Positions 3 through 64,000 of a stretch of 64,000 nucleotides of DNA are shown in pieces. Within the stretch, counting starts at the first letter, position 1. Every line of letters begins with the position of its first letter. A program made the translations under genes and the position numbers. The DNA is from a virus (Duplodnaviria; Caudoviricetes), in the IMG/VR virus record IMGVR_UViG_3300026311_000012, positions 35,912 through 99,911 of that record; one strand, given 5' to 3'. Below the pieces are notes generated by a model. The model worked only from the letters and a program-made list of their open reading frames with translations. It had not been told where the DNA came from and searched no databases.

Positions 3-335
3 CTAGAGTTTTCAAAAGGTACACCACATTATTCTTTAGATGTAATTATTATAAAAAAAGTACCAAAACCATATGTAGGACATGGAAAAATATTTCAAAT
101 ATATGATGAGGATAATGTAGTTGCAGTTACTGTAGCTTCTGTAAGATCTTCTGAAATTAATACTACTTCTAATGAATTAGAAATATATTTAAATGGAGTA
201 AATGATCATATGAATAGTTCTACAATACATGCAACATTATGGAATCTACATAATAAAGATATTTATCATATTTTTAAATTACTAAAACAATATTCATGTA
301 ATTCTTTTAAAAAATTAAAATATTATGATATTTAA
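3..335 (+). CDS. Hypothetical protein, 5'-truncated at window edge
   Basis: Frame open from nt 3 (LEFSKGTPHY...SFKKLKYYDI) to TAA at 333-335; not in ORF track. Confidence 0.7.
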   Translation, partial: LEFSKGTPHYSLDVIIIKKVPKPYVGHGKIFQIYDEDNVVAVTVASVRSSEINTTSNELEIYLNGVNDHMNSSTIHATLWNLHNKDIYHIFKLLKQYSCNSFKKLKYYDI

Positions 336-30600: not shown

Positions 30601-33600
30601 AAGTTTTCCGTCTTTTGTCTTATTTAAATGTAAAGCTACAAATTTAAATAAGTTAAGTATGTTTTCTACATCTCCAGTCTCAGCTAATGTCTTAGGTTTA
30701 ATTAACTCAAATCTGTTTTTATATCGTATATATAAATAACCATTAATTAAATCAAATGTACTGTTACTAGATTTATGTTTACTTATTTCTTCTATAGGTT
30801 CACCAGTTGCTTTTGGTTTTACAGCCTCAATTACAAACGTAGCATTTTCAGCTATATTATTTACAGCAAAAGCCTCTAATGCATCTATTTCAGTTATATC
30901 CTTAGTAACTTTAACACCAGCTGTTACATATTCTATATTAAATTCAAAAGGAACATTACTATTCTCAATATCTTTTCTTAAAGCAATGTATTCTTTAAGT
31001 ACCCTTGCTTTTTCAGCAGCTATATGCTTTTCTATCTGTTCTTTAGTAGCTTGAGGATTCTCTGTAGCAAATTTTTGCATAAACTTAGCAAATGAAAATC
31101 TGCTTTTAGTCTCACCATCTATTTTTTTAGTATATTCATATTTTGGTAATAACATTGAAGTTACTGCCATATGAGTACCTGTATCGGAAATCTTTCCAGA
31201 ATCATCCATCATAACTGGATTAAGAGTTCCTTTTTTAACTGCTACATATTTAATATCTTCTTCATCTACAAATGTTAACTTATCGCCAAACGATAATTCC
31301 TTTGCCGCTTTTTTCGATACAGCTATTATAGAATATTCTGAAGATTTATATGCATGATTGTTTACGAATGCAAACCAATATGCTGTTTGATCATTTTGCA
31401 CAGCAGCGCTCTGATCAGTGCCAGGAATAAGAAATGAATTGATAGTGCCATCAAATACTTTTAGTGAAGCTTCTTCAAATAAATGTTTTATCTCACCATC
31501 AGTATTCTTAAATAAGGTACCAAATTTGCCTTCTAAGACACTTTCTTTATCAAGTGACTCATCATATAGCTTCTTCTCTAACCAATCGTCTAGAGTAAAG
31601 AAATCACCTATAGCCTTCTTGTATTCAGATAAGAAAGTAGATCTGAATTTTCTTAGAGCAACTAATTCATTTAATAATTTATCTCGTATTTTATTTTTTT
31701 CAAATAGAGTAGATTCTTCTGTACTAATTATATCGTTTAATATAGATATTTGTTCTAATACATTTTTTCTATCTGATAACAAATCACTAAACTGATCATT
31801 TTTATTAACCCCTGTTACAGTTTTTGTAATTAAGTCCACAAGAGCTAAAGGATGCTTATCAATATGCTTTAATATAACATCACCTTCTGCGTCTAGTCCA
31901 AGTTGCTCTAATCCGATATAATAAGAATCATATGCATTATCATATCTCTCTTTTGATATTGTATGGAAGTCTTCTTCAGATTCTTCTTTAAATAGATGTT
32001 TATCTCCTGATCTGGAATATTCATATATTTTACCATTTACTTCAAGTTTAAAATTATTTTTAGAAGTTGTAGGTATATCTCTATCTATTGGAATACCAAG
32101 AACATCTATTAAGTCTGAATGAATAGAACGCAATTTAAATAATAATTTTCTCATTGTCCCTCTCAGCCCAGCTAATCCTGTTCTGATATCAGACACATCA
32201 TTTTTTACTTTTCGTATCTCATCACGAAGTAAAAAGTACGTATTATTTAAAGAATTTAATACGGTTGTAGAAAGATTTTGTACTTTTTGTAAATTCAAAT
32301 TAAGTTTTACAAGTCTTTCTTCTTGAACTACAATAGATTCTTCAATCTTACTTATGGAAGCTTCTATAAGATTTATCTCTTCACGAGCTTCAGCAATAGT
32401 TTTGTATATAGGAATAATTCGTGTTACAACTTCTTCTGCCGCACGTTTTCTTTTAGTTTTAACTTCCTCTACTTTAGAACCAACTCTAACTTTCCTAAGT
32501 TCTATTTCTTGTTCTGAAAGAGTATCTCGATACTTAGTTATTACATTATTAATATTAGTTGATATCTGTATAATTCTCTTTTGGAGAGATGCTGATTTTT
32601 CTTTTTGCTTATTTATAAGCTCTGTTGTGATATCAATAAGATTTGTATATTGAGTAGTAACTGCTTGTATTTGAGTTTCTTCACGTACTTCTTCTGCTGT
32701 TTTTACAGTAGTTATTGCTTTAAAATCAGTGATACGTTTTTCACCATTTATTGTAATAGTACCATCTGCATTTAAAGAAGCTCTATTTTTAGTAGCTTCA
32801 TATTTTTCACCAATCTTATTAAATATTTGTAATGATAATGAACCATCACTTTTCTTTGTACCAACTTTTGCAAAAACTTCTTCCCCACCTGCTGTTGGTA
32901 TAGATATAATACCTCTATGAGTGGCAATTTTATTTTTTCTTAAATCTTCATCTGTTGTAACAAGATCTTCTTCTCTGGTGAGAGCTAAAGATTCGTGTAT
33001 AACATTATCAGAATATATTTTGGCTAATTCAGGAGAGAGCCCTTCTGTTGCCTTTGCCGATTGTTTTTTGTTATTTTCTTCTTCTTCTAATTTCTTAGCT
33101 TTTTCTTTATCTTCTAATTTTTTATCGTATGCTTTTTGCAGAACAGAAGTTTTATATAAATCTTTTAACTCATCAGACTTTATTTTATAATCCTCTACAT
33201 AATTCTCTAGTTCTTCTATCTGTCTTTCTGCTACAATAATATCTTGCTCATCTATATTATTATTCTTTTTAGACTCGTCAAGTGCTTCCTTTAAAGAAGA
33301 TATTAATTTTTCATTAGCTTTAGTCTCTGAAGATGAAATTTTTGTACTGCCTTTAGCTAATTTATTTCTTAATATATCAATACGTTCAAGAATAAACTCT
33401 AAAGTATTTTTTGTTGAAATTTTAGCATTTTCAGTTTCAAGAACAAATTCGTTAAATATATCTGAATCTGCTTCGTTTCTTTTAATTGATTTACGTAAAG
33501 TAATGGCATTTTTATCTTTGATATCATCATATATAGATTGAAGCCTGTTTGCTTTCTTTATTAAATCATTTTTTACTTGTTCTACAACACCAGGATCTAT

Positions 33601-35211
33601 TCCAGTAGCTTCTGCATCTTGAGCAGCTTCTTTAGTAGCTAAAAATTCTGCATGCTTTTTGAATAATTCTAATCCTCCTTCTGTTTGAATAAATGGATAT
33701 ATATATCTAGCATCCATTATATTTTTAAAATATTCAAATGCTTCTTCTTCTCCATTAGCTTTTAAAAGATCCATAAAGCGTGTAGTTTGCGCTTCATTTA
33801 ATTGATCTTTTGTGGCTTTAGCAAGCTTTTCTTTATCTACTACAAATTCTCCAGTATCTGGGTCTATAACAGGATTGCCATCTTTAATAACGGCAAAATC
33901 CTTCATAGTTGTATATCTATTTATATAATTACTTTTGAGTAATGAGTGATATTCGTTGGCTAACGTTTGTTCTGCTTTATTTCTACGAACTGTTTGAAAA
34001 GTAGACATGCCCCCACCAAGCAATCCTCCAAGTACTACAGACTTCCAAAACTCTGTACTTTCTTTATCTGATCCTAAAGCACGCTCTATATACTCACCAG
34101 CAACTTCATCTAAATCTTCAAGTGGATTAGATCCTTCTTGAGACATTTCAGAAACAACATTTTGTAAACCTTCTTCAAAAAATCCTTCAGACAATATACC
34201 AAGCCCTGTAGTTTTTCCAATCTTTGCAGCTTGTTCAAGTCTTGTTAATGGTCTTACAGCTTCTCTAATTTCACCAGTCTTAGTAAAAGATCTGGCAAGT
34301 ACACTTTCTGCAGCTTTAGATTTGCCTCTATTAAACCCATTAAATAACCATTTCTGTGTAAGAATATTTGGTCCAACTAATATAGCAATATTTGACTTAA
34401 ATGTATTTGCCCCAGCTTTACCAGCTAACTCTGGATCGTTATATTGAGCTAATGCATTTCTATAAGCTTCTTGTCCTTCATTAGCAGCTTCAAACGTAGT
34501 ATTAAGAGCTACAGCAGTCCAATCATCAATTGTTCCAGCTAATTTTTGAGACAGCTGAAAACCAGGTTTTAATGTTTTCCATAAGCCTTGCACAGCTTCT
34601 CCAGCTTTTAATCCTTTGACTAAAGCTCCAGGAGCAAGCATACCAACAAGAAAACCAACAGCATCAGCGCCTTCGTTTGCCCAAAATGCTGATGAGCCAA
34701 GATTTTTCCATAACCCACCATCAATAACAGATTGAGGAGTATAAACTGGTAATAACTTTTTAACTCCTTCTTCTGCATTCTCAACAGCAGCTATCCATCC
34801 ATTATTAAATGAACTACCAAAAGCATCAGGAGAAAATCCAGTCTCAGCCCATTCTGCAAATCCTGAAATATATCCAGGAAGAGACGCAGCTGAAGATAAT
34901 GCTTTTGTTGCAGCTCTAGGCAGAAAATAAGCCCATCTTTCTAAACCAGACTGATCTTGAGCTAGTTCTTCTTGTAAATCTCGACCACCTGTAGGAATAT
35001 ATTCCCCAACTCTCTTTTTAAATTCAGATAATGGTTGATCTGGAGTAACATAAGACGTTTGTCTATTTAGTCCAACTGAATATGCAGGAGAAGGAATATT
35101 TGCTGCTTTAGTATAAGCATCAAATGTTTTACCTTGATCTTTGGTTTGAGATTTAGACAGATCTTCTTTTTCTATTGGTTCTTGCCCAAGAATGTTATTA
35201 CTGTTAGCCAT
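21691..35211 (-). CDS. Giant virion-associated RNA polymerase polyprotein (4506 aa) with zincin-like domains
   Basis: RIP...SSDFDIDK catalytic motif (25342-25356); HEGWH (29326-29340) with downstream EEILAE; degenerate EEAAH (22240-22254); Gly/Ala-rich hydrophobic N-terminal helices. Confidence 0.9.
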   Translation of the reverse strand: MANSNNILGQEPIEKEDLSKSQTKDQGKTFDAYTKAANIPSPAYSVGLNRQTSYVTPDQPLSEFKKRVGEYIPTGGRDLQEELAQDQSGLERWAYFLPRAATKALSSAASLPGYISGFAEWAETGFSPDAFGSSFNNGWIAAVENAEEGVKKLLPVYTPQSVIDGGLWKNLGSSAFWANEGADAVGFLVGMLAPGALVKGLKAGEAVQGLWKTLKPGFQLSQKLAGTIDDWTAVALNTTFEAANEGQEAYRNALAQYNDPELAGKAGANTFKSNIAILVGPNILTQKWLFNGFNRGKSKAAESVLARSFTKTGEIREAVRPLTRLEQAAKIGKTTGLGILSEGFFEEGLQNVVSEMSQEGSNPLEDLDEVAGEYIERALGSDKESTEFWKSVVLGGLLGGGMSTFQTVRRNKAEQTLANEYHSLLKSNYINRYTTMKDFAVIKDGNPVIDPDTGEFVVDKEKLAKATKDQLNEAQTTRFMDLLKANGEEEAFEYFKNIMDARYIYPFIQTEGGLELFKKHAEFLATKEAAQDAEATGIDPGVVEQVKNDLIKKANRLQSIYDDIKDKNAITLRKSIKRNEADSDIFNEFVLETENAKISTKNTLEFILERIDILRNKLAKGSTKISSSETKANEKLISSLKEALDESKKNNNIDEQDIIVAERQIEELENYVEDYKIKSDELKDLYKTSVLQKAYDKKLEDKEKAKKLEEEENNKKQSAKATEGLSPELAKIYSDNVIHESLALTREEDLVTTDEDLRKNKIATHRGIISIPTAGGEEVFAKVGTKKSDGSLSLQIFNKIGEKYEATKNRASLNADGTITINGEKRITDFKAITTVKTAEEVREETQIQAVTTQYTNLIDITTELINKQKEKSASLQKRIIQISTNINNVITKYRDTLSEQEIELRKVRVGSKVEEVKTKRKRAAEEVVTRIIPIYKTIAEAREEINLIEASISKIEESIVVQEERLVKLNLNLQKVQNLSTTVLNSLNNTYFLLRDEIRKVKNDVSDIRTGLAGLRGTMRKLLFKLRSIHSDLIDVLGIPIDRDIPTTSKNNFKLEVNGKIYEYSRSGDKHLFKEESEEDFHTISKERYDNAYDSYYIGLEQLGLDAEGDVILKHIDKHPLALVDLITKTVTGVNKNDQFSDLLSDRKNVLEQISILNDIISTEESTLFEKNKIRDKLLNELVALRKFRSTFLSEYKKAIGDFFTLDDWLEKKLYDESLDKESVLEGKFGTLFKNTDGEIKHLFEEASLKVFDGTINSFLIPGTDQSAAVQNDQTAYWFAFVNNHAYKSSEYSIIAVSKKAAKELSFGDKLTFVDEEDIKYVAVKKGTLNPVMMDDSGKISDTGTHMAVTSMLLPKYEYTKKIDGETKSRFSFAKFMQKFATENPQATKEQIEKHIAAEKARVLKEYIALRKDIENSNVPFEFNIEYVTAGVKVTKDITEIDALEAFAVNNIAENATFVIEAVKPKATGEPIEEISKHKSSNSTFDLINGYLYIRYKNRFELIKPKTLAETGDVENILNLFKFVALHLNKTKDGKLTPEAEQAENVRKYLTTALYHNSSPASGFASQYRLFFRKDSKNGKYMGLVYGDTLISMEDLISGKADKSLSFFLSNKYWNFKKKAIEEKGKSFIEFKGRLDSKGNIKVTEKKHRNYLHFLFPNNVPAQKGVTPVSKGVVLLKPAPKDKTNHLALAKDPQYINQGLQLSKVVEKKPVEKKEIKKRSTEKIDLEKNKTLVEISFTDESGELINKYLILDKTQNKFGLIEDKYLEGFAPLGITKDDFVTADLWTASLRSILRAEDGTARITEDTTVGKYTFKFYSGEFSLAPQSVAPTTTKVDTEKKPVTWETESDTVRATYLDSAKGFVADPTDQKSVEAVAKKNYYKRREVNKDTTELERRATIYEEYEKENIEIAKAWLKKKFPNIPVEVIDGLIQNKAWGKVLISGKVLLSEVAQAGTAYHEGWHVYSQFFITASDRTALYEETRARLNNHKLSDKEVEEILAEDFRDFMMMGSTYKFNKITEVKKETIFRKILNFLKSIFGITGEEEIKTTLVEKAFKELRDNSFIDIVSKPKNSFFKIANLSSAAAQAFVEDINTRFLRYVVSDLESGDDIIMRLEESAKNIYNVIKSTYEEDVIKDENTYAEAILRNWDELVRKHSVFFTQYKADFREQLDEDDVLGRNRNDFIESASKNIKDEVPSPIRLLIGSLAETTNRNGEIVIERKEGFGTEVRVKFNKLMTAINNVAAGSSDVSDFYTNLIKLIPQYPSVKRLIRLLGNTIENGVAVPNEEMSKTQFELRNQMYHSFANNKTTPIIGIVGENGINYVYPVDENEIKVLKTDWINNAIAIAKSKSTKYIDEDFKIDKSLLFKDLSEALREKTTTKLKIVLEQLGMIVNPPYNTTSDNVYVQYGSRLKEELSRSDLGDIYINDFYNRDRIENQKELDAMLHDSTKDYINDSDLTHLTIKGNLEYGVSRGSHYHEVSDRINSYIESGEETVPKNLQHIVPLSKDGTGNLFTSHSKFYEAIQEAKRNKKAGNAYNKISVIKLLGVKSRKDDGTDLKDEEHFDYLMMTTDAILNNIIPVLRAGDRGPEYGIKFMPNEETITREMFIKALNDYLYDEVITSVALIRDADKFGGKYENYKENAKKLRVFSFLNKNIQPIEEFLAGKRGKTLDKIKEYTQSYLDTYSTEITEALNNYIDELMSNNLQELMEWKLINRVGDGKYKAQGISFETLKNLGISVSSDKTLNNSAINSLLMRHAYNYFIGSQEQLKIYLGDIAFFKNAKDFHKRITSHTSTRTKLPNDSSTIALANKYYPQAFGSHKQQINGIVWNEIIRYSSAYKNRKMSVADGQLWSTLEFARTIKIRQGLWNDNLENSYQYESQLLALTLLKEGNEDLLEAAERTREDIENMFYTGIFSEHTNQSIPDVPMFKGEKIMAKNRATITTIKPLGVGAEQNATNLFAPTIQKCSVAPLIPSILPRNSLKIYLSALANNIDVFGDSTVQKETYISSGKYGVITKESPINVTLFDDFGIQSDMNTEDKQRITKSTQMNRVLFVETHDKGQLLDKYKNTDVLSLRQEHKDIIAALTSGQIERLKKDFGLGITEDGNYYLENVDIFKESLINMVESRLMPDSVADGIVQVLDSESKSIDILITKKQVESMLMALPKKRAIAFKVNGEMYAQESSWIYSDNGEPVLDFGYDKGKPMEIMVPIPERWVEYVESIGGIDVLNKMIEEGKIDERILTFTANRIPTAAPNTLEAVRVKKFLPYHAGPRIILPYDIVIKTSSDFDIDKLFTYLNNVKITKKGLKYIEYLDDSNSTVEQRYEAYYDPELIKEDEILDRVSGIFKDLPIGSRQTMTLEEFKKLSIIQQNTQRAIENRFNEINYKMLMMPERKEILLRPHESTELKNIAEEIAKNRKKSELDKKEDNVNEDLQYLTEFWYNARKFKEFQASKSLVAYIASASSVNNKTQEFPIQINNPLLRLFFKEQEGGNYTNGHTVDTNGYPIYDNYGQFLVAAVDAVKDPYIFSLLSDNNIYSIYSFLNKTGTNKGVGLRTIAKFLNAPIIREYLRELSISNSIGYNNNTYSKKDSKGIYNSKATIISDLVKKYSSGKIKDIGKELLYNSFEKYIYSSSTDARGKAENEFNEKLEKLNYKYLSEADMDNPENAVQILDNFLIYQRAAMEEVRLQKYLRFDASAAFPKSITSMNSKLDGYFNLDSKIFNVSDIIKYNRESYLNAFLDTYYESGRMYQWSSYILSDETRRALFQKMMADVLNNPRNPSFNIRRDAKSMEKALTKVENDFYQYIYMTIKYNGDVNLQRTVYKKLLLGKDSIPNRFNALRKKGVLNPALVKILRPVINEFSNTTGKTRDNSYITTFTKRHDISEENDLTNAIEMMMNSSIEEIRKLGMGIYELGLIQNGLSDSPISYARYLPSSKYISEMDNYIIEFFNRPNVEELMLGFANQFGKVNSNDINFVPKHHKFAEKTKDGRLVISNQVEDKDGNIKMYLSRNVGARYVNVRIETPYAEYKAKTRFNRKVPVEHVLFEFVRMTDPDPKYNSPMAIYRRVNKLGDGFRFLEYYTDAVSPAEYYDTIGTFPDSPPSILTENDYINTKQKMSSVQISEDIGPNTNFNPTNVSEDTRNEDMKYVLDNIKDIKIYLGGSTEFTRQMSAALDWAKVKTNTGRYTIEHSKGKFVVDFKSGSLSGLSTDLFKLSDIRLLIGLGKLIETRGVTTVFDEIDNINAQFNEAKENYQLLNSDISEENVTELDNKMKDFLNKLNVTFEETKVLKNKFGDKTAIAISDLTNMTVKVLEGEMNIQTLPEEAAHFYVHLLDKTTGLYKSMMTNIVNHPIYGEVKEKYKDVYTTDEEFRTEAIGQVIAKQIINQYSANERLEQQAKTWWNILWNWIKNLFNKRISDPYAKVAYDILNNKIDELLVNTKEEITSDIEQVKQTNENIDEFSKEIDTLDMPSLLANFDTLFPNESWRNENEKIALLEATLYGHVEIACGI

Positions 35212-47017: not shown

Positions 47018-47917
47018 TTAAAATGTTATTTTTACACCAGGTGCAATAAACCAATTCTCTTTAAAAGTCTTGTATTTATTAATATCATAACCTACTCCAA
47101 GATTGAATGTAAAAGAATTAAATAACTGGAGTGCAGATACATCCACCATAAGAGACATAAACTGCTGAGTAATATCTTCTGTTATAGGAAATAGTACATA
47201 TCCACCAAAACCATAGTTATTGAAAACTTCACCTTCGTTATTAATAAAATGAGAAAAAGTTATACCAAAACCAGAGCGTGAAAATGGTTCTGTAACAAAT
47301 TTACCATCAGCTACAGAAAAATTAGTTTTAGCTCCAAGAACAGTAGCTCCAAATCTCATAATTAATGCACCATTGTCATTAACTGAAATTGTGTCAGAGC
47401 CTGCTCTAAGTTGTTTAGCAATCTGCTTAGTCTTAATAGTTTCAACAGTTACAGGTTGAAATAAACTTTTAAAAGCAGGTTGAGCAGATGCTGTCAAAGC
47501 CATGCTAGAAAGCAACACCCCAAGAATAAGCATCTTAGTTGCTTTACCACTCTTCTTTTTAGGTTCTTTAATAGCTTCTTTCTTTTCACTTTCAGGAGCA
47601 ACAGCTTTTAATTGAGCTTCATGCTTCATCCTAACAGCTTTCATCTTAGGAGATTCAGTTGCTTTCTTCTTAGCAAGACTAAAAAGAAAATTAACAACTT
47701 TACGCCAAATAGATCCTTCAGGAATCTTATCACTTTCTCCAATCCATTCGGAAAGAAAATACATAATTACTAAAATTAAAGTCCAAAGATTGGTCTTTAA
47801 AAATTCCATAAACGATTCCCCAAAGTCATAAGTAACTACTGCTGTAGAATCAGTTGTCTGACCGAATGTAAACAGGGCAATTACAAATAACACAAACATT
47901 GCAAAATACTTCTTCAT
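47018..47917 (-). CDS. Membrane protein: signal peptide, holin-like TM, second internal signal, beta-barrel-like C-terminus
   Basis: MKKYFAMFVLFVIALFTFG|Q; WTLILVIMYFLSEWIG; KATKMLILGVLLSSMALTASA|Q; amphipathic strands ending GVKITF. Confidence 0.7.
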   Translation of the reverse strand: MKKYFAMFVLFVIALFTFGQTTDSTAVVTYDFGESFMEFLKTNLWTLILVIMYFLSEWIGESDKIPEGSIWRKVVNFLFSLAKKKATESPKMKAVRMKHEAQLKAVAPESEKKEAIKEPKKKSGKATKMLILGVLLSSMALTASAQPAFKSLFQPVTVETIKTKQIAKQLRAGSDTISVNDNGALIMRFGATVLGAKTNFSVADGKFVTEPFSRSGFGITFSHFINNEGEVFNNYGFGGYVLFPITEDITQQFMSLMVDVSALQLFNSFTFNLGVGYDINKYKTFKENWFIAPGVKITF

Positions 47918-48792
47918 TTTTTTTGTTTTTGATTATTATTATTATTAATAGATTCTCCTTCTACTATATAGAAAGTCCAAAAATCCATACACAAAGTTCT
48001 ATCTAATACAAATTCCCAAGGAACATGACATGTACCACACATTCCCCATCCTGATCCCCAAGAGTTTAATTCTATAGTACCATCTTTATCATAATCAAAT
48101 ATAACCATACAGTGACCTCCATGAAGGGTTTCTTTTTCTTTATTGGGAATAGGAACAATTCCTGACTCAGCCACTTCTTCTGACATGAAACTATCATATA
48201 TAAGTTTACCATATACAACAGGGTATCCTCTAGATACTGCATCTTTTATAGCTTCTTTTGTATGAGGCAACCTTTCATATCTTATAGACTGATGATCGAG
48301 TGCTTCTTTAAAAGCCTCGTCAGAAGGCTTAATTGCAAATTTCTTTATGCAATAAGGAATTGTTTTTTCACTACATAATCCAAATTTATTAATAGCCTTA
48401 AAAGCATCTCTTATAGATGCCCCGGTATCATTGTCTTTATCTTCTCTTGCTATATAATATGCAAATAATCTTGATGCTAAAAAGTCAGACTGATTGTTTG
48501 TTTTAAGAACATATCTGTATGCTTCTACAACACCATGTCCTACACAACTACCTAAAGCTCCTTGATTATATCTTGTTCTAAACTTTTTAATATTTCTTTT
48601 ATTAGTAGATTCAGGTAATCCTTTATATCTTCTAACTCTATATACAATATCTCTAGGATCTTCCTTATCCTTAATAGCTCCTAATGCATATGGAGTTGTT
48701 TTTTTACGCATAAAATACTTCTTAATAAATTTGTACAAAGATACGAAATTTATTTTAATTGTCAAAGCCTTTATTCTATCTTTTATATTCAT
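47914..48792 (-). CDS. Papain-family (C1) cysteine peptidase
   Basis: QGALGSCVGH, GGHCM, NSWG..WG..G. Confidence 0.92.
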   Translation of the reverse strand: MNIKDRIKALTIKINFVSLYKFIKKYFMRKKTTPYALGAIKDKEDPRDIVYRVRRYKGLPESTNKRNIKKFRTRYNQGALGSCVGHGVVEAYRYVLKTNNQSDFLASRLFAYYIAREDKDNDTGASIRDAFKAINKFGLCSEKTIPYCIKKFAIKPSDEAFKEALDHQSIRYERLPHTKEAIKDAVSRGYPVVYGKLIYDSFMSEEVAESGIVPIPNKEKETLHGGHCMVIFDYDKDGTIELNSWGSGWGMCGTCHVPWEFVLDRTLCMDFWTFYIVEGESINNNNNQKQKK

Positions 48793-55112: not shown

Positions 55113-57107
55113 TTAATTATTGTATCCTGCTAATTTGCCATTATATTTACCGAACTTCGTACCCACTTTGCCAAAGACTGAGACTGCTGCGGGAGGCTCG
55201 CCTCCACTTTCCGTCACCGTACCTACACCAAGCAGAACAAGGCCGGTAAATGGTTGTAGTGAGATTTCCCCCGAATACGATGCGTTAGTAATATCAACCA
55301 TCGAGGCAGACAGTGTCCAATACTTTACAGCTTTTGTGTTATTATAGATAAAATGTATATCATTAGTTGAGCTGACACTGACGGGACTGCCGTAGGAGTG
55401 GGCATCGTCCGGTGTGACCAGCGCCTTCCATTCTGCCAGCGTATGGTATCCGGAGGCGTAGTAAAAGTGGTTATCATCGTCGATCGGCCTGGCGTAGTAG
55501 TTGTAGTCGAAAGCTCCCCAGGCTTTTATTTCGTCGGTGGTGTAAATGCCAGATCGGAGGCTTACTTGTGCTGATGCCTTTGCTATCAGCTTATTGTTAT
55601 TAAATGTTATGCCTGTCGAGACTCCGGTTCCCCATTTCAAGAATTCAGCCTGTCGCTGGTTGTCAAAGAAGAGGTTCCCGGTGATCGTGTGGTTATCTCC
55701 GTAATGGATCAGCAGACCCGCTCCCCTGCATCCGGCGACGATGTTGTTTGTTATCGAGGCCCCGCTTCCTCCGGCATCGTAGTAGATGCCTCTTGGTATG
55801 ATAAGCCAGCTCTCCGATCCAATTCCGGAGTTCAGCACTATGTTCTGGTTGATCGTTCTGGTCCCGGTACTGCTATTGCAGTAGATCCCGCCTCCGTCGT
55901 CGATCACCATGCATGGGTAATTGATGAAATTCCTGTAAATAGAAAACGACGAGATGCTGGAGCTGTTGATTCCACTCCAGGCTATGTATTCGATGTTGTT
56001 ATATTCAACCGTTGTGTTCGTACTGCCTATGTAGATCCCTGTTGCGTGTGGCATGCGGGCTGCCCCTTTTATCATTCCGATGTGGGAGATGTCGTTATGT
56101 GTGACTGTGATGTTGCTCCCTACCAGGTAAATGCCGTAGTTGCTGTGGCTTATCATATTGTAGTGAAATTCCGAATAGCTGCCACCACCATCCTCGATGG
56201 CTGATCCTCCTGCGAAGCTGATGTCGCAATTCTTGACCTGGTTGTAGCGCGTTGAACTATTATTGTGGATTGCGTGGCTGATGGACCCCGTCAGTTCCAG
56301 GTTGGTGATGTGTATGTAGTCGTGTGCGTTGTTATAAATCAGTTTATTCAGCGTGGCTATCTTCACATCCTTCCCGGCTGGGTTCCCATAAACGTAGAGC
56401 TTACCTGCGCTGGTGCTATGATACCATTCGTTGGTGGTGGTGACGCATCGCAGATCGTTCTGTATGAAATAGCGGCGGTTGTCTTCTGGCGTTCCCGAGT
56501 ATGAGCAGCTGCCCCAAGTAAGGACCCCTCCGGAGGTGTGGTCTGTTATAACGCAGCGGTCGACTATCCAGTACTGTTTATTAATGACGATATCGGCTCC
56601 GGTCCAGTCTGGGCTGTCGGGCAGTTCTGGGTCTGTTATGGTACTGGAAGTGGCGGTGGTGTATGTCAGCCATTCGGCATCCGGATAGCGACCCATGCCT
56701 ACCGGCACTCCGTCCATGATCACCATATTCGTCTGCGCCTCCGAGCTGCTCACGGTCGCTTCGTAGATGCTCCCGCTATAAAGGCTCCAGCTCGTGAGTG
56801 TTGTGAAGCCGGTGATGATAGGCTTCTCTCCTGTCCCATAGGCTCCTATGACGATTGGGTTCCCGGCGGTTCCTGGCTCGGCTACCGTGATGGTTCCGTA
56901 CCAGGTATCGCCCCTCTTGAATAGGATGCTGTCCCCTGGGGCGAATGTTCCGGCTGCCCAGAAGCTGTTGACCTTTGATATGGTTGCCCAGGCTGCCTCG
57001 TCGGAGGTCCCTGCTGCCTGGTCATCACCTCCGTTCTTAATGTAATAGTTAGTGGCTGATGCGGTCAGCGTGATTAAAATAAACGGTATGAACAATAGTC
57101 TTTTCAT
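55113..57107 (-). CDS. Right-handed beta-helix protein with Sec signal peptide
   Basis: MKRLLFIPFILITLTASA|TNYY; PGDSILFKRGDTW, DGGGIY, GIYYD; GC-rich. Confidence 0.82.
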   Translation of the reverse strand: MKRLLFIPFILITLTASATNYYIKNGGDDQAAGTSDEAAWATISKVNSFWAAGTFAPGDSILFKRGDTWYGTITVAEPGTAGNPIVIGAYGTGEKPIITGFTTLTSWSLYSGSIYEATVSSSEAQTNMVIMDGVPVGMGRYPDAEWLTYTTATSSTITDPELPDSPDWTGADIVINKQYWIVDRCVITDHTSGGVLTWGSCSYSGTPEDNRRYFIQNDLRCVTTTNEWYHSTSAGKLYVYGNPAGKDVKIATLNKLIYNNAHDYIHITNLELTGSISHAIHNNSSTRYNQVKNCDISFAGGSAIEDGGGSYSEFHYNMISHSNYGIYLVGSNITVTHNDISHIGMIKGAARMPHATGIYIGSTNTTVEYNNIEYIAWSGINSSSISSFSIYRNFINYPCMVIDDGGGIYCNSSTGTRTINQNIVLNSGIGSESWLIIPRGIYYDAGGSGASITNNIVAGCRGAGLLIHYGDNHTITGNLFFDNQRQAEFLKWGTGVSTGITFNNNKLIAKASAQVSLRSGIYTTDEIKAWGAFDYNYYARPIDDDNHFYYASGYHTLAEWKALVTPDDAHSYGSPVSVSSTNDIHFIYNNTKAVKYWTLSASMVDITNASYSGEISLQPFTGLVLLGVGTVTESGGEPPAAVSVFGKVGTKFGKYNGKLAGYNN

Positions 57108-57111
57108 GTTA

Positions 57112-58374
57112 TCAGTATAAAAGGATCATTGGGCTTGCAGTGTTTGATGAAAAGCTGGTCATCCCAAAAGAGGCGGGCAGATCCGTTTTGTCGGTTATAA
57201 AGCCTCGAAGCCTTACAGAATTTCCCATGAAGCTGCTCTGGTTCATTAATGTCATTGCCTCTCCAGCATATATTGATGGAGCCTGTGTCTGAGCGGAGCT
57301 ATTGTAAAGAAGCCCGATATAATATGCTCCTTTCGTCGCCTGATATGGTGAAGAAAACGGCTTATCTACCCATGCGTATTGCGCACCTGTCCAGGTGTCT
57401 GCGTCGTTTGGAGTGGAGGCGACAAGCGTGGCTGTCGTTCCGGATACCTTATAAAGACCAATACGGTTATTGGCATCAGCCGTATAACTTGCATTTTGGG
57501 CGTTGCTGAATCTCACGCCTGTTAAGGTCGTATCTCTTGGCAGATAAATCGCTACCACGAACATGTCGCTATCCTGGAGTACTAGAGAGGTTGAAGCATC
57601 CATGTCGCAAAAAATGGGGGCAGCGATTATCTTTCCTCCGAAGGCTCGGAGGGCTTTAGCAATGTCAGCTCCCCATCCTGCCATGTTCGTTATAAGTTGC
57701 TCTGCGGAATACCTGGGGAGATAATTGCCTGGTGCATATCCTGTGCTATCCTTTACTGCAATTACTTCTTCAGCTCCTGCAAGATATACGTCCATAGTAT
57801 CATGAATATCTTGTGGTGTAGCATATCCTGCACTTGAATGGTCTCCCCAGTTATATGCTGTATTCCAATTTGTTGAATTATTAGTAATAGTTGTACCCCA
57901 TGATGTGCCATTTACAACTAAAGGTATTCCAGAACCAGTAGGATATACCATTGATCCACCACTAACTTCAGATAATAATGCATAATTTGTTAACATTGAA
58001 GCAGTGTCTGACTTTAATAAATAGCTAGACAATGATAAAGCTGAAGATAAAGTACCACCATTTATTGTCGGAAGATTTGTTATCTCTAGATCAGTAAACC
58101 ATCCTTTTGTTAATCTTGATGAAGTAGTACCAATAGAACCTGTGCCAAGTAAACTATTTGAACCTAACGAAAAATTACCACCAGACAGTGTAAGTAAATT
58201 GCTACTTTGTTGAAGTATTATATCATTATTATAAAAATTTATGGATGCACTAGTACCATTAAGATATAATACAGGGGCTATTTTTTCAATTGTTATATTA
58301 GTTTTTGATACTTGTTGAGCACATGCTGCAAAAGTAAATACTAATAAAGTTATAATAAATATTATCTTTTTCAT
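57112..58374 (-). CDS. Fibre-like mosaic protein with Sec signal peptide (start moved to MKKIIF)
   Basis: MKKIIFIITLLVFTFAACA|QQ; DTASMLTNYALLSEV and NWNTAYNWGDHS modules. Confidence 0.78.
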   Translation of the reverse strand: MKKIIFIITLLVFTFAACAQQVSKTNITIEKIAPVLYLNGTSASINFYNNDIILQQSSNLLTLSGGNFSLGSNSLLGTGSIGTTSSRLTKGWFTDLEITNLPTINGGTLSSALSLSSYLLKSDTASMLTNYALLSEVSGGSMVYPTGSGIPLVVNGTSWGTTITNNSTNWNTAYNWGDHSSAGYATPQDIHDTMDVYLAGAEEVIAVKDSTGYAPGNYLPRYSAEQLITNMAGWGADIAKALRAFGGKIIAAPIFCDMDASTSLVLQDSDMFVVAIYLPRDTTLTGVRFSNAQNASYTADANNRIGLYKVSGTTATLVASTPNDADTWTGAQYAWVDKPFSSPYQATKGAYYIGLLYNSSAQTQAPSIYAGEAMTLMNQSSFMGNSVRLRGFITDKTDLPASFGMTSFSSNTASPMILLY

Positions 58375-58375
58375 A

Positions 58376-58645
58376 TTATAATGTAAATTTATGTATATTA
58401 CTCCAGTCTGTATCTTCAACAGAACCTACTCCAAAACCTAAGGCTGTTATAGTTTTATCAATACACAGTGCCCCAGATCTCACTCCTATACGAAATGTTC
58501 TATTTTCAAAATAAAAATATTCTGGTTCAACTGCTACACTATATAATTCGTCAAAATTATCATTTGTTTTATCAAATGCATTACGCAAAGTATCACCAGT
58601 ACCATCATTTGCTATAGTTCCAATTCCAATAACTTGCTTACTCAT
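58376..58645 (-). CDS. Small structural protein with ANDGTGDxLR motif
   Basis: IGTIANDGTGDTLRNAFDKTNDNFDELY resembles N-termini of phage baseplate/fibre proteins; first gene after promoter 2. Confidence 0.75.
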   Translation of the reverse strand: MSKQVIGIGTIANDGTGDTLRNAFDKTNDNFDELYSVAVEPEYFYFENRTFRIGVRSGALCIDKTITALGFGVGSVEDTDWSNIHKFTL

Positions 58646-58750: not shown

Positions 58751-59074
58751 TTAATTATAGAAGTCTTTCTTCCTCAAAATCCATTCAACAATAATACTTT
58801 CAATAAGTAATATTAACATTGGCCCACTTATAGCTCCAACTATCCCCCAAAAAGCATCATAGAACTGAGGTTCTCCAAACCCCATCCATTTATCAAACAC
58901 TATTTCTTTTGAAAGAGCCACTATAATAGCAATACCTGTAGCAATTCCTGCATCCCAATTATACATTTTAGATGCAACCCACCTAAACGGATTAAATTTA
59001 ATTCTAAATGATAATAATACAGAAAAAGATATTATTAAACATATCAAAAAATGCAAAAATTCGTCTTCTCTCAT
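58751..59074 (-). CDS. Small multi-pass membrane protein
   Basis: Three hydrophobic segments; H...KE..D....D pattern. Confidence 0.7.
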   Translation of the reverse strand: MREDEFLHFLICLIISFSVLLSFRIKFNPFRWVASKMYNWDAGIATGIAIIVALSKEIVFDKWMGFGEPQFYDAFWGIVGAISGPMLILLIESIIVEWILRKKDFYN

Positions 59075-59085
59075 AACTTTATATT

Positions 59086-61410
59086 TTATAACCTTATTAT
59101 TGCAGTTCCAAATTTCACCATCTTCTGTGTTCCCTCTGACGGTGGATCAACAGGTTCTTCTTCTTGTGTAACCGTAACAACCCACTCCTGAGTAGTCGTA
59201 CCATCAAGTGCCGTAATGGTATATGTCTGTGGTGAGGTAAAGTCTCTCGATACTCCACTCAGGGGATATATCGTGGCCCCGTAGGACAGCGTTATCGTCG
59301 GGGTAAGGTTTGTTATGTCTGCGGTGTAAGCTACCTCTATCGCTACCGTGTGGTTAGTGGCGTTGATCGTAGCTACTCCAGTCTGCTCGGAAAGAGTAAA
59401 GGTGACAATATCGGTTGCGGTTTCATCGGCTTCTACCACCTCCGTAACCGTACCGGCCCCAAGCAGAATAAGAGATGTGAAAGGCTCTAAATAGATTGTG
59501 TCGCTATATGACACATTGGCAACATCTACCATCGCCGCAGATAGCGTCCAGAATTTAGTAGCTGTGCTATCATTATAAATGAAATGTATTTCATCATCAC
59601 TACTTACCGATGTTGGCGAATCTGCTGAGTTAGCATCTTGCCCACGGGCAGTACGCAAACCAGCTAGATTAGTTCCAATATGATTGTAAACAATATATCC
59701 ACTTGCATCATTATCAATCGGAGAACAATAATAATTATAATCAGTTACACATGTAGCTATTAAATCAACATCAATGTCAATTGATAATTGTGATGACGTT
59801 CTTGCAAAAAATATATTTCCAGTGACATCGACATTTGCATGACTACTAGAACTTGTAATTCTTATAGCTCTTTGATTATCATAGAATGTATTATTCTTTA
59901 TAGTTCCGCCTGTATTACCATTACCTAGATATCCAAAATAATAAAATGTATCATTCCCAGCTATTATATTATTTTCCCATCTAATTCCAACAGAAGAATT
60001 ATCACAATATATTCCTGCAATTGCAGCTGATGTAGTTGATGTTCCTTGAATACTTCCAATTCCATCTAATATAATATTATGATGAACATATCCAATTCTT
60101 CCAATTGTTCCATTATATGTATAGATTCCGCCAAGATCTCCAAGAGACATAATATAATTACTTATTTTATTATATCTTATTTCGGTTTTATCTACTTCAA
60201 ATCTTATTCCTATGCCTCCAATGCTATCCAATGTATTATATTCTATAATTGAAGATGTATTTGTACCGCTTGTATAATGATAATTAATACCTGGAATTCC
60301 TGAATAAGAATATGGTTCTCTCTGTCCAGGAAATAAGCCTATTCTATTTAGTGTATTATGACTAATTGTTATGTTAGTAAATTGATGTTGATTATTTGCA
60401 TTCCATATACTTATTCCAGCATTAGTAATATCTTCAAAATCATTGTAAGTAAACTGACACCCATTAGAAGTATTACCACCAGATCTTGATCCTCTTATGC
60501 CATAATATGAGAATTTTATATTACATTCGTTTAATATAAAATATGGAGTAGCATTTAAATCAATCGCAGCAACAGAAAATCCCTCAAATGATAAATTATC
60601 TACCGTTATATAAGATACATTTTCAGCATATAATCCTAAGTCTCTTGACGCTACTCTTACTGTATGATCGCCTGGAGTCTCCGCACCGAAGTACATATAG
60701 AATGTATTTGTTGATTGATCATGATACCATTCCCCATATGTATCTAATGTCTCTAGATCATTCTGTATATAAAAACCAAACCCCGGCTGTAAATTACTAG
60801 CTGCTGCAGCAAATATTATTGTACTTCCACTATGACTACTTATTTTTCTTACATTAGTTGCATATAAATTAATTCTTAAAACAACATCCGCCCCAGTCCA
60901 ATTATCTATGGATGAGTTTAATGTCGCATCTGTTAATGAGTTATTACTACTATAACTATCATATAATGTATAACCACTATTTGGAGATCTTCCCATTTCA
61001 GTATTAACTCCATCAACTGATACAACAAATGGTCTTGATTCACAAGTTACTGATGCAGAATATATTCCACCGCCCTCTGATGTCCATGAACTTATGGTAG
61101 TCCAGCCCGATATCAACGGTTTATCTCCAGTTCCATAAGAACTTATAGTTATAGGACTGCCTAACGTTCCACTTTCATCTGGTAATAATGTAGCATCATT
61201 AAACGTATCCCCACATCTAAAATATATATTATCACCGGGAGCAAATGTTCCAGCAGCCCATTCAGTATTCACCTTACCAATGGTAGCCCATGCCGTTCCG
61301 TCTGATGTACCAGCCGCCGCATCACTACCCCCGGTCTTCACGTAGTAATTAGTAGAATATAAATTACCAAAGGCGAAAACAAATATTAATATAGTTAATA
61401 TTTTTTTCAT
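59086..61410 (-). CDS. Right-handed beta-helix protein with Sec signal peptide and C-terminal Ig-like domain; paralog of 55113..57107
   Basis: MKKILTILIFVFAFGNLYS|TNYY; WAAGTFAPGD; DLGGIY; LTPTITLS.GATI.P.SG...DFTSP..YTITA.DG. Confidence 0.82.
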   Translation of the reverse strand: MKKILTILIFVFAFGNLYSTNYYVKTGGSDAAAGTSDGTAWATIGKVNTEWAAGTFAPGDNIYFRCGDTFNDATLLPDESGTLGSPITISSYGTGDKPLISGWTTISSWTSEGGGIYSASVTCESRPFVVSVDGVNTEMGRSPNSGYTLYDSYSSNNSLTDATLNSSIDNWTGADVVLRINLYATNVRKISSHSGSTIIFAAAASNLQPGFGFYIQNDLETLDTYGEWYHDQSTNTFYMYFGAETPGDHTVRVASRDLGLYAENVSYITVDNLSFEGFSVAAIDLNATPYFILNECNIKFSYYGIRGSRSGGNTSNGCQFTYNDFEDITNAGISIWNANNQHQFTNITISHNTLNRIGLFPGQREPYSYSGIPGINYHYTSGTNTSSIIEYNTLDSIGGIGIRFEVDKTEIRYNKISNYIMSLGDLGGIYTYNGTIGRIGYVHHNIILDGIGSIQGTSTTSAAIAGIYCDNSSVGIRWENNIIAGNDTFYYFGYLGNGNTGGTIKNNTFYDNQRAIRITSSSSHANVDVTGNIFFARTSSQLSIDIDVDLIATCVTDYNYYCSPIDNDASGYIVYNHIGTNLAGLRTARGQDANSADSPTSVSSDDEIHFIYNDSTATKFWTLSAAMVDVANVSYSDTIYLEPFTSLILLGAGTVTEVVEADETATDIVTFTLSEQTGVATINATNHTVAIEVAYTADITNLTPTITLSYGATIYPLSGVSRDFTSPQTYTITALDGTTTQEWVVTVTQEEEPVDPPSEGTQKMVKFGTAIIRL

Positions 61411-62279
61411 TCTACCACCCCACTTCCTATTGCATCCATATATTCTTCAATAATATCAAAAAGAGTTGCGGCTTCTTCATCAGTAATGCCATCCATTAAA
61501 AATGCAATAGATAATACATCTCGTGAAAGACCACCAACCGATCCATTGTTGTTATTCGCACATAAATACATTATTTGATTTGGCAGGTTATCACTTTCTG
61601 AACTACCTGTACCAATAGAACTCCCATTATGATACAATTCTGAATCAGTATTTCCTCTTCGTGTTCCTACCGCTAATCCTCCTCCCTCAGTACGGTTTGC
61701 ATCAAGATTAATATAATTACATAATCTTACTCTCATGACTGGGCCTGTTGTAATGGGCATCATAAATATCATTTGTGTACCATCAGATACACCAAAAACA
61801 ACGCTAGCTAAATGATCACTAGTAATAGTATATGCTCCTATGGTTAAGTCGTCTAATCCTATATTATCAGCATTTGTTGATGGGTTATAGCCAGTAGTTA
61901 AATATCCAGTAGTACCGTCTGAACTTACTCCTTCATAGCTACTGAAATTTACTGTAGCGGCACCAACTGTTGCATCAAATGTTCCAGGGGTAATCCAATT
62001 TATATATGCCTCACTCCCAGTATTAAGTTCTGTTGCAAACACATAAAATAAATCCATCCTTGCCCAATAACCCCCATCTACCAAAGCCTGAACCATTTTA
62101 TTCTGATAACCTTTAGTTACTAGTGAAGGCTCAGTTGTCATAGCCGCAAGAACAGCATTATATTCATCACAATAAGTTATCGTTTCTACAGGTGCAACAT
62201 AATTTGAATACCTCAATATCTGCCCCTCAACCGAGGCAAGGATAAAGAGTGCTGTTATAAGTAAGAGTAGTTTCTTCAT
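61407..62279 (-). CDS. Beta-sandwich (lectin/LamG-like) protein with Sec signal peptide
   Basis: MKKLLLLITALFILASVEG|Q; LVDGGYWARMDLFYVFA; DGTTGYLTTGYNPS. Confidence 0.7.
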   Translation of the reverse strand: MKKLLLLITALFILASVEGQILRYSNYVAPVETITYCDEYNAVLAAMTTEPSLVTKGYQNKMVQALVDGGYWARMDLFYVFATELNTGSEAYINWITPGTFDATVGAATVNFSSYEGVSSDGTTGYLTTGYNPSTNADNIGLDDLTIGAYTITSDHLASVVFGVSDGTQMIFMMPITTGPVMRVRLCNYINLDANRTEGGGLAVGTRRGNTDSELYHNGSSIGTGSSESDNLPNQIMYLCANNNNGSVGGLSRDVLSIAFLMDGITDEEAATLFDIIEEYMDAIGSGVVE

Positions 62280-62282
62280 GGT

Positions 62283-63998
62283 TTATAGTCTCCTAATTTG
62301 AGCATTCAGTTGTAAATTCCATTCCTTTGGTCGGTATCCTTCCGGCTGGTCGGCCCTTAACTCTATCCATACATCATTTCCAGGGGCAATAGTTGACTGA
62401 TTGTTTGGAGTGAAAGTTGTCTGATTGTCCCCACATGACTGAGGACCAGTAAACAATGAGTCAACCGGTGTAGCTGTCATGCGATTACCATAGTACACAT
62501 TGAACAAAAGAGAGTCGTTTTCGGAAATAACAATGTTTCTGAGATCAACTATGTGAAGTGAATCCTGTGTCACCTTGAATGCTCCGAATCCTCTCTTTCC
62601 TTTCGCAAAAGCAATAGAATCGGCCGGCTCTCCTATTCCTGCACCAAAGACAAAGTATGGCGATGTATCATCAATCATCCTTGCTTCAGATCGTATCACA
62701 TCAGCGGTATCGTTTATCCATCCCTGTACCTGGGACATGATAGTAAGATTACCTCCACCGGCAGGAAGAGAGTAACTTGCATTACCATTGGTCTCAAAAG
62801 TAAGTCTGTCATCCCCGGTAAGCCTTAATGATCCTCCGTTAAGAATAAGACTGTCAATAGATGCCTCCTCGATCTCTGAGCGTAAGGCATAATTGGTAAG
62901 CATAGTGGCTGTATCGGCAACTTCGACATACAATGGTCTGAACACATCAAGACTATCATTTATCCATCCCTGAACCTGTGACATTAGGGTAAGCGTACCT
63001 CCTCCAGATGGGAGACTGTATGACCCATCTCCGTTTGTGTAAAAGGTAATATCATCAGCAGTACCTTCGCTCCCATTTAACGTAATGGTTCCAGAATTAA
63101 GTGTAATTCCAACAACTCCTCCGCCACCGCCTCCGACTGATCTTGCGTAAGCTTTAGTCGCAAGGGTATCTGTAGTATGATCAAAATGGAATGCATCATC
63201 AATATTGATAGAATCAGCAAGCACACCAATAATACTGTCTGTCCTTGTCTCAAGTATAGCAAAATCGCTTGCACGAAGATAGTTTGTAAGCATACTTGCA
63301 GTATCGGCAACAGCAACATATAAAGGTCGAAGTACATTCAAACTGTCTGCTATCTCATCTCTTACGTCACCTATGACAACATCTCCAGTTCCAACCTCGC
63401 TCAAAAGAGCATAGTTTGTCAACATTGAGGCAGTATCCGCAACCATAACCACCAATGGCCGAAGAACATTAAGACTATCTGCAATTTCATCCTGCACAGC
63501 TCCAATACCTATGCCCCCTTCAGATAGATCGGTTAGTTTAGCATAAGTATCAAGCATGGCCGCAGTGTCAGCCACGGCAACGTAAAGAGGTCGCAGGGCA
63601 TTTAGGCTATCCGCAATCTCATCACGAACATCCCCTATTGAGGTTCCGGCATCTCCAAGCTCGCTTGTTAAAGCATAATGAGCAAGCATACTGGCTGTGT
63701 CAGAAACACTCACTTTTGCAGTAAGAGCAGAAGCGAGCTCTCCATTGCGGGTATAATTCCCAAGCATAGTCGCAGTATCCGAAACATTTACCTTGGCCGC
63801 CAGAGCAGAGTTTAACTCCCCGTTGCGGGTATAATTGGCAAGCATTGAGGTAGTATCTGACTTCAGTAGCCGGAGTTGAATATCCGCAGAATAATTGGTA
63901 ATGCTGTCACCATACTCCGAAAGCGTGACCTCAATAGAATCTAAACTCCCATTTACATTATCAAAATTAGCATCTATGACAGCTCTAACTGAAGCCCA
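62283..63998 (-). CDS. Repeat-rich fibre-like protein dense in D-(S/T)-hydrophobic motifs; 5'-truncated
   Basis: Frame stays open from 63845 to the window end (WASVRAVIDANFDNV...LLKSDTTSML); repeated DT(A/T)xML.NY modules. Confidence 0.8.
   Translation of the reverse strand, partial: WASVRAVIDANFDNVNGSLDSIEVTLSEYGDSITNYSADIQLRLLKSDTTSMLANYTRNGELNSALAAKVNVSDTATMLGNYTRNGELASALTAKVSVSDTASMLAHYALTSELGDAGTSIGDVRDEIADSLNALRPLYVAVADTAAMLDTYAKLTDLSEGGIGIGAVQDEIADSLNVLRPLVVMVADTASMLTNYALLSEVGTGDVVIGDVRDEIADSLNVLRPLYVAVADTASMLTNYLRASDFAILETRTDSIIGVLADSINIDDAFHFDHTTDTLATKAYARSVGGGGGGVVGITLNSGTITLNGSEGTADDITFYTNGDGSYSLPSGGGTLTLMSQVQGWINDSLDVFRPLYVEVADTATMLTNYALRSEIEEASIDSLILNGGSLRLTGDDRLTFETNGNASYSLPAGGGNLTIMSQVQGWINDTADVIRSEARMIDDTSPYFVFGAGIGEPADSIAFAKGKRGFGAFKVTQDSLHIVDLRNIVISENDSLLFNVYYGNRMTATPVDSLFTGPQSCGDNQTTFTPNNQSTIAPGNDVWIELRADQPEGYRPKEWNLQLNAQIRRL
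62690..63870 (-). repeat. Nested intragenic coding repeats
   Basis: 2x 26-aa NYTRNGEL.SAL.AKV.VSDTA; 3x IG.V.DEIADSLN.LRPL.V.VADTA.ML; 2x TF.TNG..SYSLP.GGG.LT.MSQVQGWIND. Confidence 0.9.
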
Positions 63999-64000
63999 GG

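Follow-up and report, generated by a model that had tools for sequence, protein, structure and literature searches.

A crassvirus fibre-like lipoprotein rich in Bacteroidota O-glycosylation sequons, a candidate for export and glycosylation by the host

We analysed a 64,000-nt stretch of viral DNA (positions 35,912 to 99,911 of IMG/VR record IMGVR_UViG_3300026311_000012; the window in the following). At its end lies a gene for a fibre-like protein in which the O-glycosylation motif of Bacteroidota is found about five times as often as expected by chance. The open reading frame (ORF) occupies 62283..63998 on the minus strand and is open at the window end, which is also the end of the 99,911-bp record. 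A 127-bp direct terminal repeat is present at the ends of the record, which measures 99,784 bp when read as a circle. On this circular reading the gene crosses the contig end, and 55 codons are added up to an ATG, giving a protein of 626 aa. Residues 55 (a partial codon) to 626 and the stop codon are encoded in the window (62283..64000, minus strand). Residues 1–55, which include the signal peptide and the lipobox cysteine Cys22, lie past the window end across the circular junction (record 128-290, minus strand), and the segment L002:3-290:- encodes the first 96 aa of the protein.

As the N-terminus lies outside the window and its reading relies on circularising the record, the protein could in principle be a conventional cytoplasmic tail fibre whose leader stems from a mis-called start or from an artefact of joining the contig ends. 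We regard this as very improbable. An independent 3.6-kb metagenome contig of the Joint Genome Institute carries the gene uninterrupted and flanked by the same 172-aa and 290-aa genes, which shows that the join is real. The ATG is located 2 bases past the stop of the upstream gene, with only six codons open in front of it, and the same or similar leaders are seen in dozens of relatives. The identical 626-aa protein was also found in a public protein collection (P0001).

The N-terminus reads MKKIKLIKIIFTLLIIFGVTG↓C, where the arrow marks the cleavage site, and continues into the mature protein as MKKIKLIKIIFTLLIIFGVTG↓CIVTNIHPTPYLEEED. By a rule-based reading this is a lipoprotein signal peptide with the lipobox VTG↓C at C22, fitting the rule [LVI][ASTVI][GAS]C; the basic residues K2, K3, K5 and K8 are accompanied by a 13-residue hydrophobic core (the IIFTLLIIFGV stretch). 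About 20 relatives share the signal peptide II design (LSG↓C, FSG↓C, ITG↓C, LAG↓C, MAGC), and in these lipoprotein relatives the lipobox is followed by a conserved C-(I/M)-G-T-K-I-Y-L-G, a charged tether and then AIDPT.IPAGGTW. Other clades carry the same mature region directly behind a classical Sec leader for signal peptidase I (SPI) that ends in A/G-Q. The initial annotation, which was limited to the window, had proposed to look for a signal peptide at the true N-terminus; a lipoprotein signal is found there and is conserved in the clade. Export of the fibre protein from the cytoplasm is, in our judgement, well supported by these features.

Exposure of Bacteroidota lipoproteins on the cell surface needs an acidic lipoprotein export signal (LES) at positions +2 to +6, described in the forms C-X-K-(D/E)2, SDDDD and SDDFE (PMC5080379). 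No LES is present in the fibre protein, where the residues from the cysteine on are C-I-V-T-N-I-H and the first acidic residues appear at +13. The relatives in the lipoprotein clade likewise lack an LES, with C-I-G-T-K-I-Y-L-G following the cleavage site. The protein is thus expected on the periplasmic side and probably faces the periplasm, which lends no support to the cell-surface filament suggested in the initial annotation. A sorting domain of the type IX secretion system (Por_Secre_tail, TIGR04183 or TIGR04131) was not detected in the protein at E <= 0.1 with Pfam or NCBIfam.

The motif, or sequon, is defined here as D-(S/T)-(A/I/L/V/M/T), i.e. D[ST][AILVMT]. The 626-aa protein contains 22 sequons, of which 19 lie in the 520-aa ORF, three in its extension (positions 75, 86 and 103) and none in the 55 residues added by the circular reading. 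The amino acid composition predicts 4.09, and 10,000 shuffled sequences gave a mean of 4.12 (SD 1.88) and a maximum of 14, so that none reached 22. This is in exact agreement with an earlier manual count of 19 + 3 against an expectation of about 4. As that count had also implied, the sequons are not merely copied along with the repeats: with one copy kept of each internal repeat, 14 sequons remain in 439 aa where 2.64 are expected (0 of 20,000 shuffles reached this number), and when shared sub-motifs are merged as well there are still 11 (Poisson P = 1e-4). All six regions of the protein are enriched, by about 4- to 9-fold each. An allowed third residue follows 22 of the 25 D[ST] dipeptides, and before [ST][AILVMT] Asp is 4.7-fold over-represented while Glu never occurs. 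The other 103 ORFs of the phage, a comparison that the initial annotation had called for, are at chance (91 sequons, 92.7 expected). The fibre gene is the sole outlier in the genome (Poisson P = 5e-10), its density being 3.5 sequons per 100 aa where the remainder of the phage has 0.3.

Behind the signal peptide and a 30-residue tether, the protein consists of a conserved N-region, helical and beta-rich repeats and a jelly-roll tip. The mature N-region (residues 56-99, 63867..63998, minus strand as for all parts of the gene) follows AIDPT.IPAGGTW and holds two sequons, DSI at 75 and DSI at 86; SPI-type relatives carry this region right behind the cleavage site. Residues 100-173 (63645..63866) form repeats of ~26 aa, each with a DT(T/A)xML.NY unit (three sequons), and residues 174-300 (63264..63644) form three repeats of 44 aa, each with ADSLNxLRP and ADTAxML..Y (six sequons). 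A unique middle segment (residues 301-349, 63117..63263) contains a run of six Gly and the sequons DSI, DSI and DTL at 309, 317 and 332. It is followed by two beta-rich repeats, one of ~82 aa and a shorter one of ~59 aa (residues 350-490, 62694..63116; four sequons), with the pattern ...SYSLP.GGG.LT.MSQVQGWIND[ST]... The C-terminal tip (residues 491-626, 62286..62693) has four canonical sequons, DSI, DSL, DSL and DSL at 515, 534, 550 and 568, in addition to a DTS; these five fall on positions at which 33 relatives invariably have Asp. Our recount of the middle and C-terminal segments recovered the same sites as the initial annotation.

A predicted model of the tip (residues 476-626) is a jelly roll with a mean confidence score (pLDDT) of 88. 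In structure it comes closest to the tail-fibre tip of Agrobacterium phage 7-7-1 (Z 9.0, root-mean-square deviation 3.4 Å over 113 residues), only slightly above the generic jelly-roll background, and a Foldseek search of the tip against the PDB returned weak jelly-roll matches only. The fibre protein has no significant match in Pfam, PHROG or NCBIfam, chance-level matches only in a PDB sequence search, and no structural look-alikes above noise level in the ESM Atlas. A tblastn search of 50,697 phage records with the fibre protein and its 774-aa neighbour gave no match. The protein had earlier been called mucin-like. With 17% S+T, it lacks the long disordered Ser/Thr/Pro-rich tracts of mucins, and the sequons are located in conserved repeats and a well-folded tip; it is better described as a folded, fibre-like protein with sequons at conserved structural positions. 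A likeness of the N-terminus to the T4 gp9/gp10 type, noticed by eye, was rejected: there is no PF07880 hit, and BLASTP against an 89-aa PF07880 protein of the same phage aligns no N-termini.

The major capsid protein of the phage is ~35% identical to those of Bacteroides crAss-like phages and of Cellulophaga phi14:2. Portal, terminase and capsid are recognised by PHROGs, and Pfam matches include the crassvirus auxiliary capsid protein, ring proteins 1, 2 and 3/4 and the muzzle protein. These matches identify the phage as a complete crassvirus, whose host almost certainly belongs to the Bacteroidota.

Relatives of the fibre protein were collected by a word-indexed search (145) and an exhaustive HMMER search (275 cluster representatives). 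A set of 128 non-redundant relatives contains 1961 sequons where 526 are expected (ratio 3.73), and only one of the 128 is enriched less than 1.5-fold. Before [ST][AILVMT], Asp is 3.6-fold enriched, while the values for Glu and Asn are 0.56 and 0.75. The middle position is clearly enriched for Ser and Thr only, with a weak value of 1.26 for Glu. The position behind D[ST] shows an excess of A, L and I and a 2- to 20-fold deficit of G, P, F, N, Q, K, E, D and R. These preferences match the published specificity of the Bacteroidota O-glycosylation system (PMC12871550). A leader was found by a crude rule in 99 of 124 non-redundant relatives that start with Met; of the 25 without one, at least half are evidently truncated gene calls or have a leader that the rule overlooked, and nearly all complete members have a Sec or lipoprotein leader. 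Sequon enrichment and leader peptides thus go together throughout the family, as had been proposed for checking.

The named relatives are Chitinophagaceae, and all named relatives belong to the Bacteroidota, the phylum with glycosylation at this motif (PMC12871550), which upholds the link to this phylum drawn in the initial annotation. No homologues from phages of other phyla were found. When the repeat was scanned in 185,579 bacterial and archaeal species, with one genome each, 165 stretches were confirmed; of the best 75 loci, which were examined, 74 are labelled Bacteroidota, including Chitinophagaceae, Sediminibacterium, Pedobacter, Pelobium, Hanamia, Cytophaga and Bacteroidales. The single locus with another label, at a GC content of 44%, is from a metagenome-assembled genome labelled Caulobacter. 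Because the scan pattern contained the motif, this result shows the phylum range of the repeat and not the conservation of the sequon. Among GTDB genomes the DT(A/S)xML repeat is frequently found in giant leader-bearing proteins (1000-3500 aa) encoded on the chromosomes of Chitinophagaceae and Sphingobacteriaceae. These proteins often lie at contig ends or are split over small contigs, which suggests repeat arrays that break assemblies.

The sequons of the family are found in three settings: the DT(A/S/T)xML..Y unit, the DSLxxxRP unit and five sites of the C-terminal domain. Among 768 copies of the DTxML unit, anchored on ML..[YF], Asp is present in 764. At the five tip sites Asp is present in 32–33 of 33 sequences, Ser and Thr are interchangeable, and an aliphatic residue or Thr nearly always fills the third position. 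Conserved positions of this kind would also be seen if the D-(S/T)-aliphatic tripeptides were structural elements of the fibre family, for instance caps at the starts of helices and strands in the repeats and the jelly roll, with a coincidental match to the sequon and a density that is not selected for glycans; some incidental glycosylation might still take place. Several observations are in line with this explanation and weigh against selection for glycans. The tip sequons stand at fixed columns 16–19 residues apart, mostly at strand starts of the model, and are nearly absent elsewhere (4 of 160 lie outside six recurrent alignment columns). Thr occupies 749 of the 768 DTxML units (97.5%), though the enzyme also takes Ser. 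The seven other leader-bearing ORFs of the phage are at chance, with 10 sequons against 11.0 expected. The fixed positions and the near-exclusive Thr suggest that structure constrains these sites, either in addition to selection for glycans or in its place. The full-length monomer model (pLDDT 56) is too poor for placing the sequons of the stalk.

We nevertheless consider it unlikely that a purely structural role accounts for the sequons. Simple Asx caps normally tolerate Asn, whereas Asp is never replaced by Asn or Glu in ~165 tip cells and is replaced in only 4 of the 768 repeat units. The third position obeys the allowed set of the enzyme, and the family occurs together with export leaders and is confined to the single phylum that has the system. 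Together, the strict Asp, the allowed third residues, the association with leaders and the restriction to one phylum favour the glycosylation system. Sequons are not required by the fold itself, as the fold-matched tip of the proteobacterial phage 7-7-1 has none and contains one D-S/T dipeptide. Finally, the host system is a general one and should glycosylate an exported protein with 22 sequons in any case.

Motif sites in exported Bacteroidota proteins are nearly fully occupied, and engineered motifs become glycosylated (PMC12871550). Like the substrates described there, the fibre protein combines a signal for non-cytoplasmic targeting with the sequon, and its family has the same residue preferences; it differs in being encoded by a phage, and in its case glycosylation is predicted from the sequence. 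The review of the system (PMC12871550) makes no mention of phage, and our literature search brought up no publication on Bacteroidota phage fibres that are exported or glycosylated by the host.

We conclude, with a probability of roughly 0.55, that the fibre protein leaves the cytoplasm, is lipidated and receives O-glycans at multiple sites in the periplasm, and that its sequons are conserved functional features of a fibre family shared by phages and Bacteroidota chromosomes. Multiple O-glycosylation by the host, taken by itself, is probable. The protein would be exported by the Sec pathway and then lipidated on Cys22, and the general O-glycosylation system of the host would add O-glycan to many of its D-(S/T)-X sites in the periplasm. 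The product would be a membrane-tethered, glycan-studded fibre, probably a trimer and probably facing the periplasm. More speculatively, the fibre could form a host-recognition kit together with the neighbouring exported fibre and beta-helix proteins. This kit might meet the progeny particles, or act on the envelope, only after lysis has opened the inner membrane, and the glycans might stabilise or shield the fibre.

The fibre gene is the second gene of a five-gene cassette in the tail module, between the AuxCP/Ring 3-4 genes and the Ring 2/Ring 1/MUZ genes, and has the same place in a second crassvirus. The cassette is also found behind the tail genes in SU10_MCP-type phages, a group unrelated to crassviruses. 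All of its genes are on the minus strand. The first, directly upstream of the fibre gene (record 293-811), encodes a leaderless 172-aa protein that matches no known family and no PDB entry. No other gene of the cassette is as well conserved: the protein is 58–68% identical in the second crassvirus and the SU10_MCP-type phages, its gene always has the same position, and it is a candidate adaptor or docking protein. The third gene (61407..62279) encodes a 290-aa protein with a Sec leader (..VEG↓QILRYSNY) and no sequons against 1.4 expected; relatives keep the leader and the start of the mature protein (QILRYSNY) and vary in the C-terminal part. The fourth (59086..61410) encodes a leader-bearing right-handed beta-helix protein of 774 aa with 3 sequons (4.1 expected), which ends in a DUF5018-like C-terminal domain that is frequent in the counterparts of relatives. 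The last (58751..59074), conserved in synteny, encodes a 107-aa membrane protein.

Two further leader-bearing genes follow on the same strand. A 420-aa fibre-like protein (57112..58374; ..ACA↓QQ) carries a DTASMLTNY unit, and the DTxML unit is confined in this phage to this protein and the 626-aa fibre, both of which bear leaders. A beta-helix protein of 664 aa is encoded at 55113..57107. Its gene has a foreign base composition (GC 50.7%), with a GC content at third codon positions (GC3) of 61%; the GC3 of the fibre gene is 33% and the genome median is 17%. These deviant values indicate mobile, recently exchanged material, and the 664-aa gene looks like a very recent import. An 89-aa ORF with the T4 gp9/10 N-terminal domain (58376-58645, minus strand) ends one base before the ATG of the 420-aa ORF and overlaps a longer, TTG-started reading of the latter (57112-58419). 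The pair resembles a fibre in two parts, an adaptor that stays in the cytoplasm and a body that is exported. The gene two places upstream of the fibre gene encodes a 214-aa protein (L003:1161-1802, minus strand) that matches PDB chain 9eg4_H ('orf16') with E = 6e-10.

In textbook tailed phages all parts of the virion are built in the cytoplasm. To our knowledge, glycosylation of phage virions is known only from phage-encoded cytoplasmic enzymes, and we know of no tailed phage whose fibres are made by export and sugar-coating by the host. A role of the fibre in the virion would imply a two-compartment assembly, in which the receptor-binding fibres of this crassvirus and of its many relatives are exported (with a lipid anchor in the present case), O-glycosylated by the host in the periplasm and joined at lysis to a particle built in the cytoplasm. 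This would be the first tailed-phage virion known to be decorated by the general protein glycosylation system of the host. We put it forward tentatively and hold it to be rather doubtful on present evidence, less likely than export and glycosylation as such.

A different view of what happens after export is that the fibre never enters the virion but stays in the envelope, tethered in the periplasm, where it might shut out further phage by occupying receptors or stopping incoming particles (superinfection exclusion), act on nascent surface polysaccharide by binding or remodelling it jointly with the exported beta-helix enzymes, or prevent progeny from adhering to debris. The lipoprotein anchor without a surface-export signal is compatible with such a role, and the anchor is awkward for a part of the virion. 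The neighbouring genes encode exported beta-helix proteins that are probably polysaccharide-degrading, and two other fibre candidates of the phage, of 573 and 439 aa, have no leader. Elsewhere, phages place genes for envelope proteins beside receptor-binding genes, as with Llp of T5, Lom of lambda and Cor. Llp and Cor are small lipoproteins (tens of residues) that block the receptor, and Lom is a small outer-membrane protein. Like these, the fibre is a late or moron-type product with a lipoprotein or Sec signal near fibre genes; unlike them, it is a modular fibre of 626 aa with a tip domain.

This architecture, large and modular with exchangeable tips as is typical of receptor-binding proteins, speaks against a purely envelope-resident product. 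The DTxML repeats also occur fused to the Peptidase_S74 fibre chaperone, the cassette lies in the late tail module, and in 22-kb loci of SU10_MCP-type phages every recognisable fibre or beta-helix gene bears a leader. Leader-bearing counterparts have moreover been detected in particles of Cellulophaga phage phi10:1. These particle data speak for a place in the virion, and a lipid anchor without a surface signal agrees just as well with an envelope-resident role, so that the sequence favours neither; a function confined to the envelope is held to be rather unlikely.

The genes gp091–gp094 of phi10:1 (NC_021802.1) are annotated from tandem mass spectrometry (MS/MS) of particles as structural protein, pectate lyase and tail fiber protein, and all four have classical leaders followed by Gln. 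They resemble the present cassette as leader-bearing late proteins of the fibre and lyase type, at the end of the tail module of a Bacteroidota phage, and show that leader-bearing fibre proteins can reach particle preparations of Bacteroidota phages. They differ from it in having SPI leaders with Gln at +1 in place of a lipobox and in belonging to a siphovirus-type phage unrelated to crassviruses; no similarity between phi10:1 and the fibre or 774-aa protein was seen in the tblastn search of the phage records. Nor are they rich in sequons, with 1, 3, 1 and 0 against 2.9, 2.4, 4.1 and 1.4 expected, which weighs against the reading favoured here.

The fibres gp22–gp26 of Bacteroides phage crAss001 (structural atlas, PMC10172136), from the same virus order, belong to the same kind of module, in which fibres that dock on the tail are encoded beside the ring and muzzle genes. 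They are unlike the present fibre in having no leaders and chance-level sequon counts, which likewise weighs against the favoured reading. Their genes are located between the portal and capsid genes, whereas the present cassette lies between auxiliary capsid/Ring 3-4 and Ring 2. In the same genome (NC_049977.1, 25093-25695), gp27, a 'lysis regulatory protein' that is hydrophobic near its N-terminus, carries 4 sequons where 0.3 would be expected. Mosaic adhesive trimer (MAT) fibres of Bdellovibrio bacteriovorus (PMC10769870) are phage-like and similar to our fibre: behind a signal peptide they combine a conserved domain at the N-terminus with tips that can be swapped, and they share with some relatives of the family a terminal Peptidase_S74 chaperone. 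They are bacterial, chromosomal and displayed on the surface, in a phylum without the sequon system, and have no sequence relationship to the fibre.

If the favoured reading, export and O-glycosylation of the fibre in the periplasm, is correct, host recognition, immune visibility and stability of Bacteroidota phages would depend on the periplasmic glycosylation machinery of the host, and this dependence would extend to relatives of the most abundant viruses of the human gut. The conserved DT(A/S/T)xML repeat of many giant Bacteroidota surface proteins would then be a glycosylated unit. What is new here is the lipoprotein variant, the crassvirus setting with a cassette common to different phage groups, and the position-by-position conservation of the sequons. 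The idea is directly testable in culturable systems.

Some other genes of the phage deserve mention. The large terminase has 1084 aa (L003:10782-14036, minus strand), and its TerL family matches are split around an inserted segment that matches helicase-loader and primase PHROGs. In related phages, TerL genes match intein and LAGLIDADG Pfam families, and the insert is probably an intein. A Peptidase_C1 (papain-family) protein (47914-48792) and a leader-bearing 299-aa protein (47018-47917) adjoin in the tail module, both on the minus strand; SU10_MCP-type relatives have a caspase-like Peptidase_C14 at the place equivalent to the Peptidase_C1 gene. After the muzzle-side genes, a single ORF of 4506 aa (window 21691-35211, minus strand) has 13 sequons against 13.3 expected and occupies the position where crassviruses encode giant virion RNA polymerase or cargo proteins.

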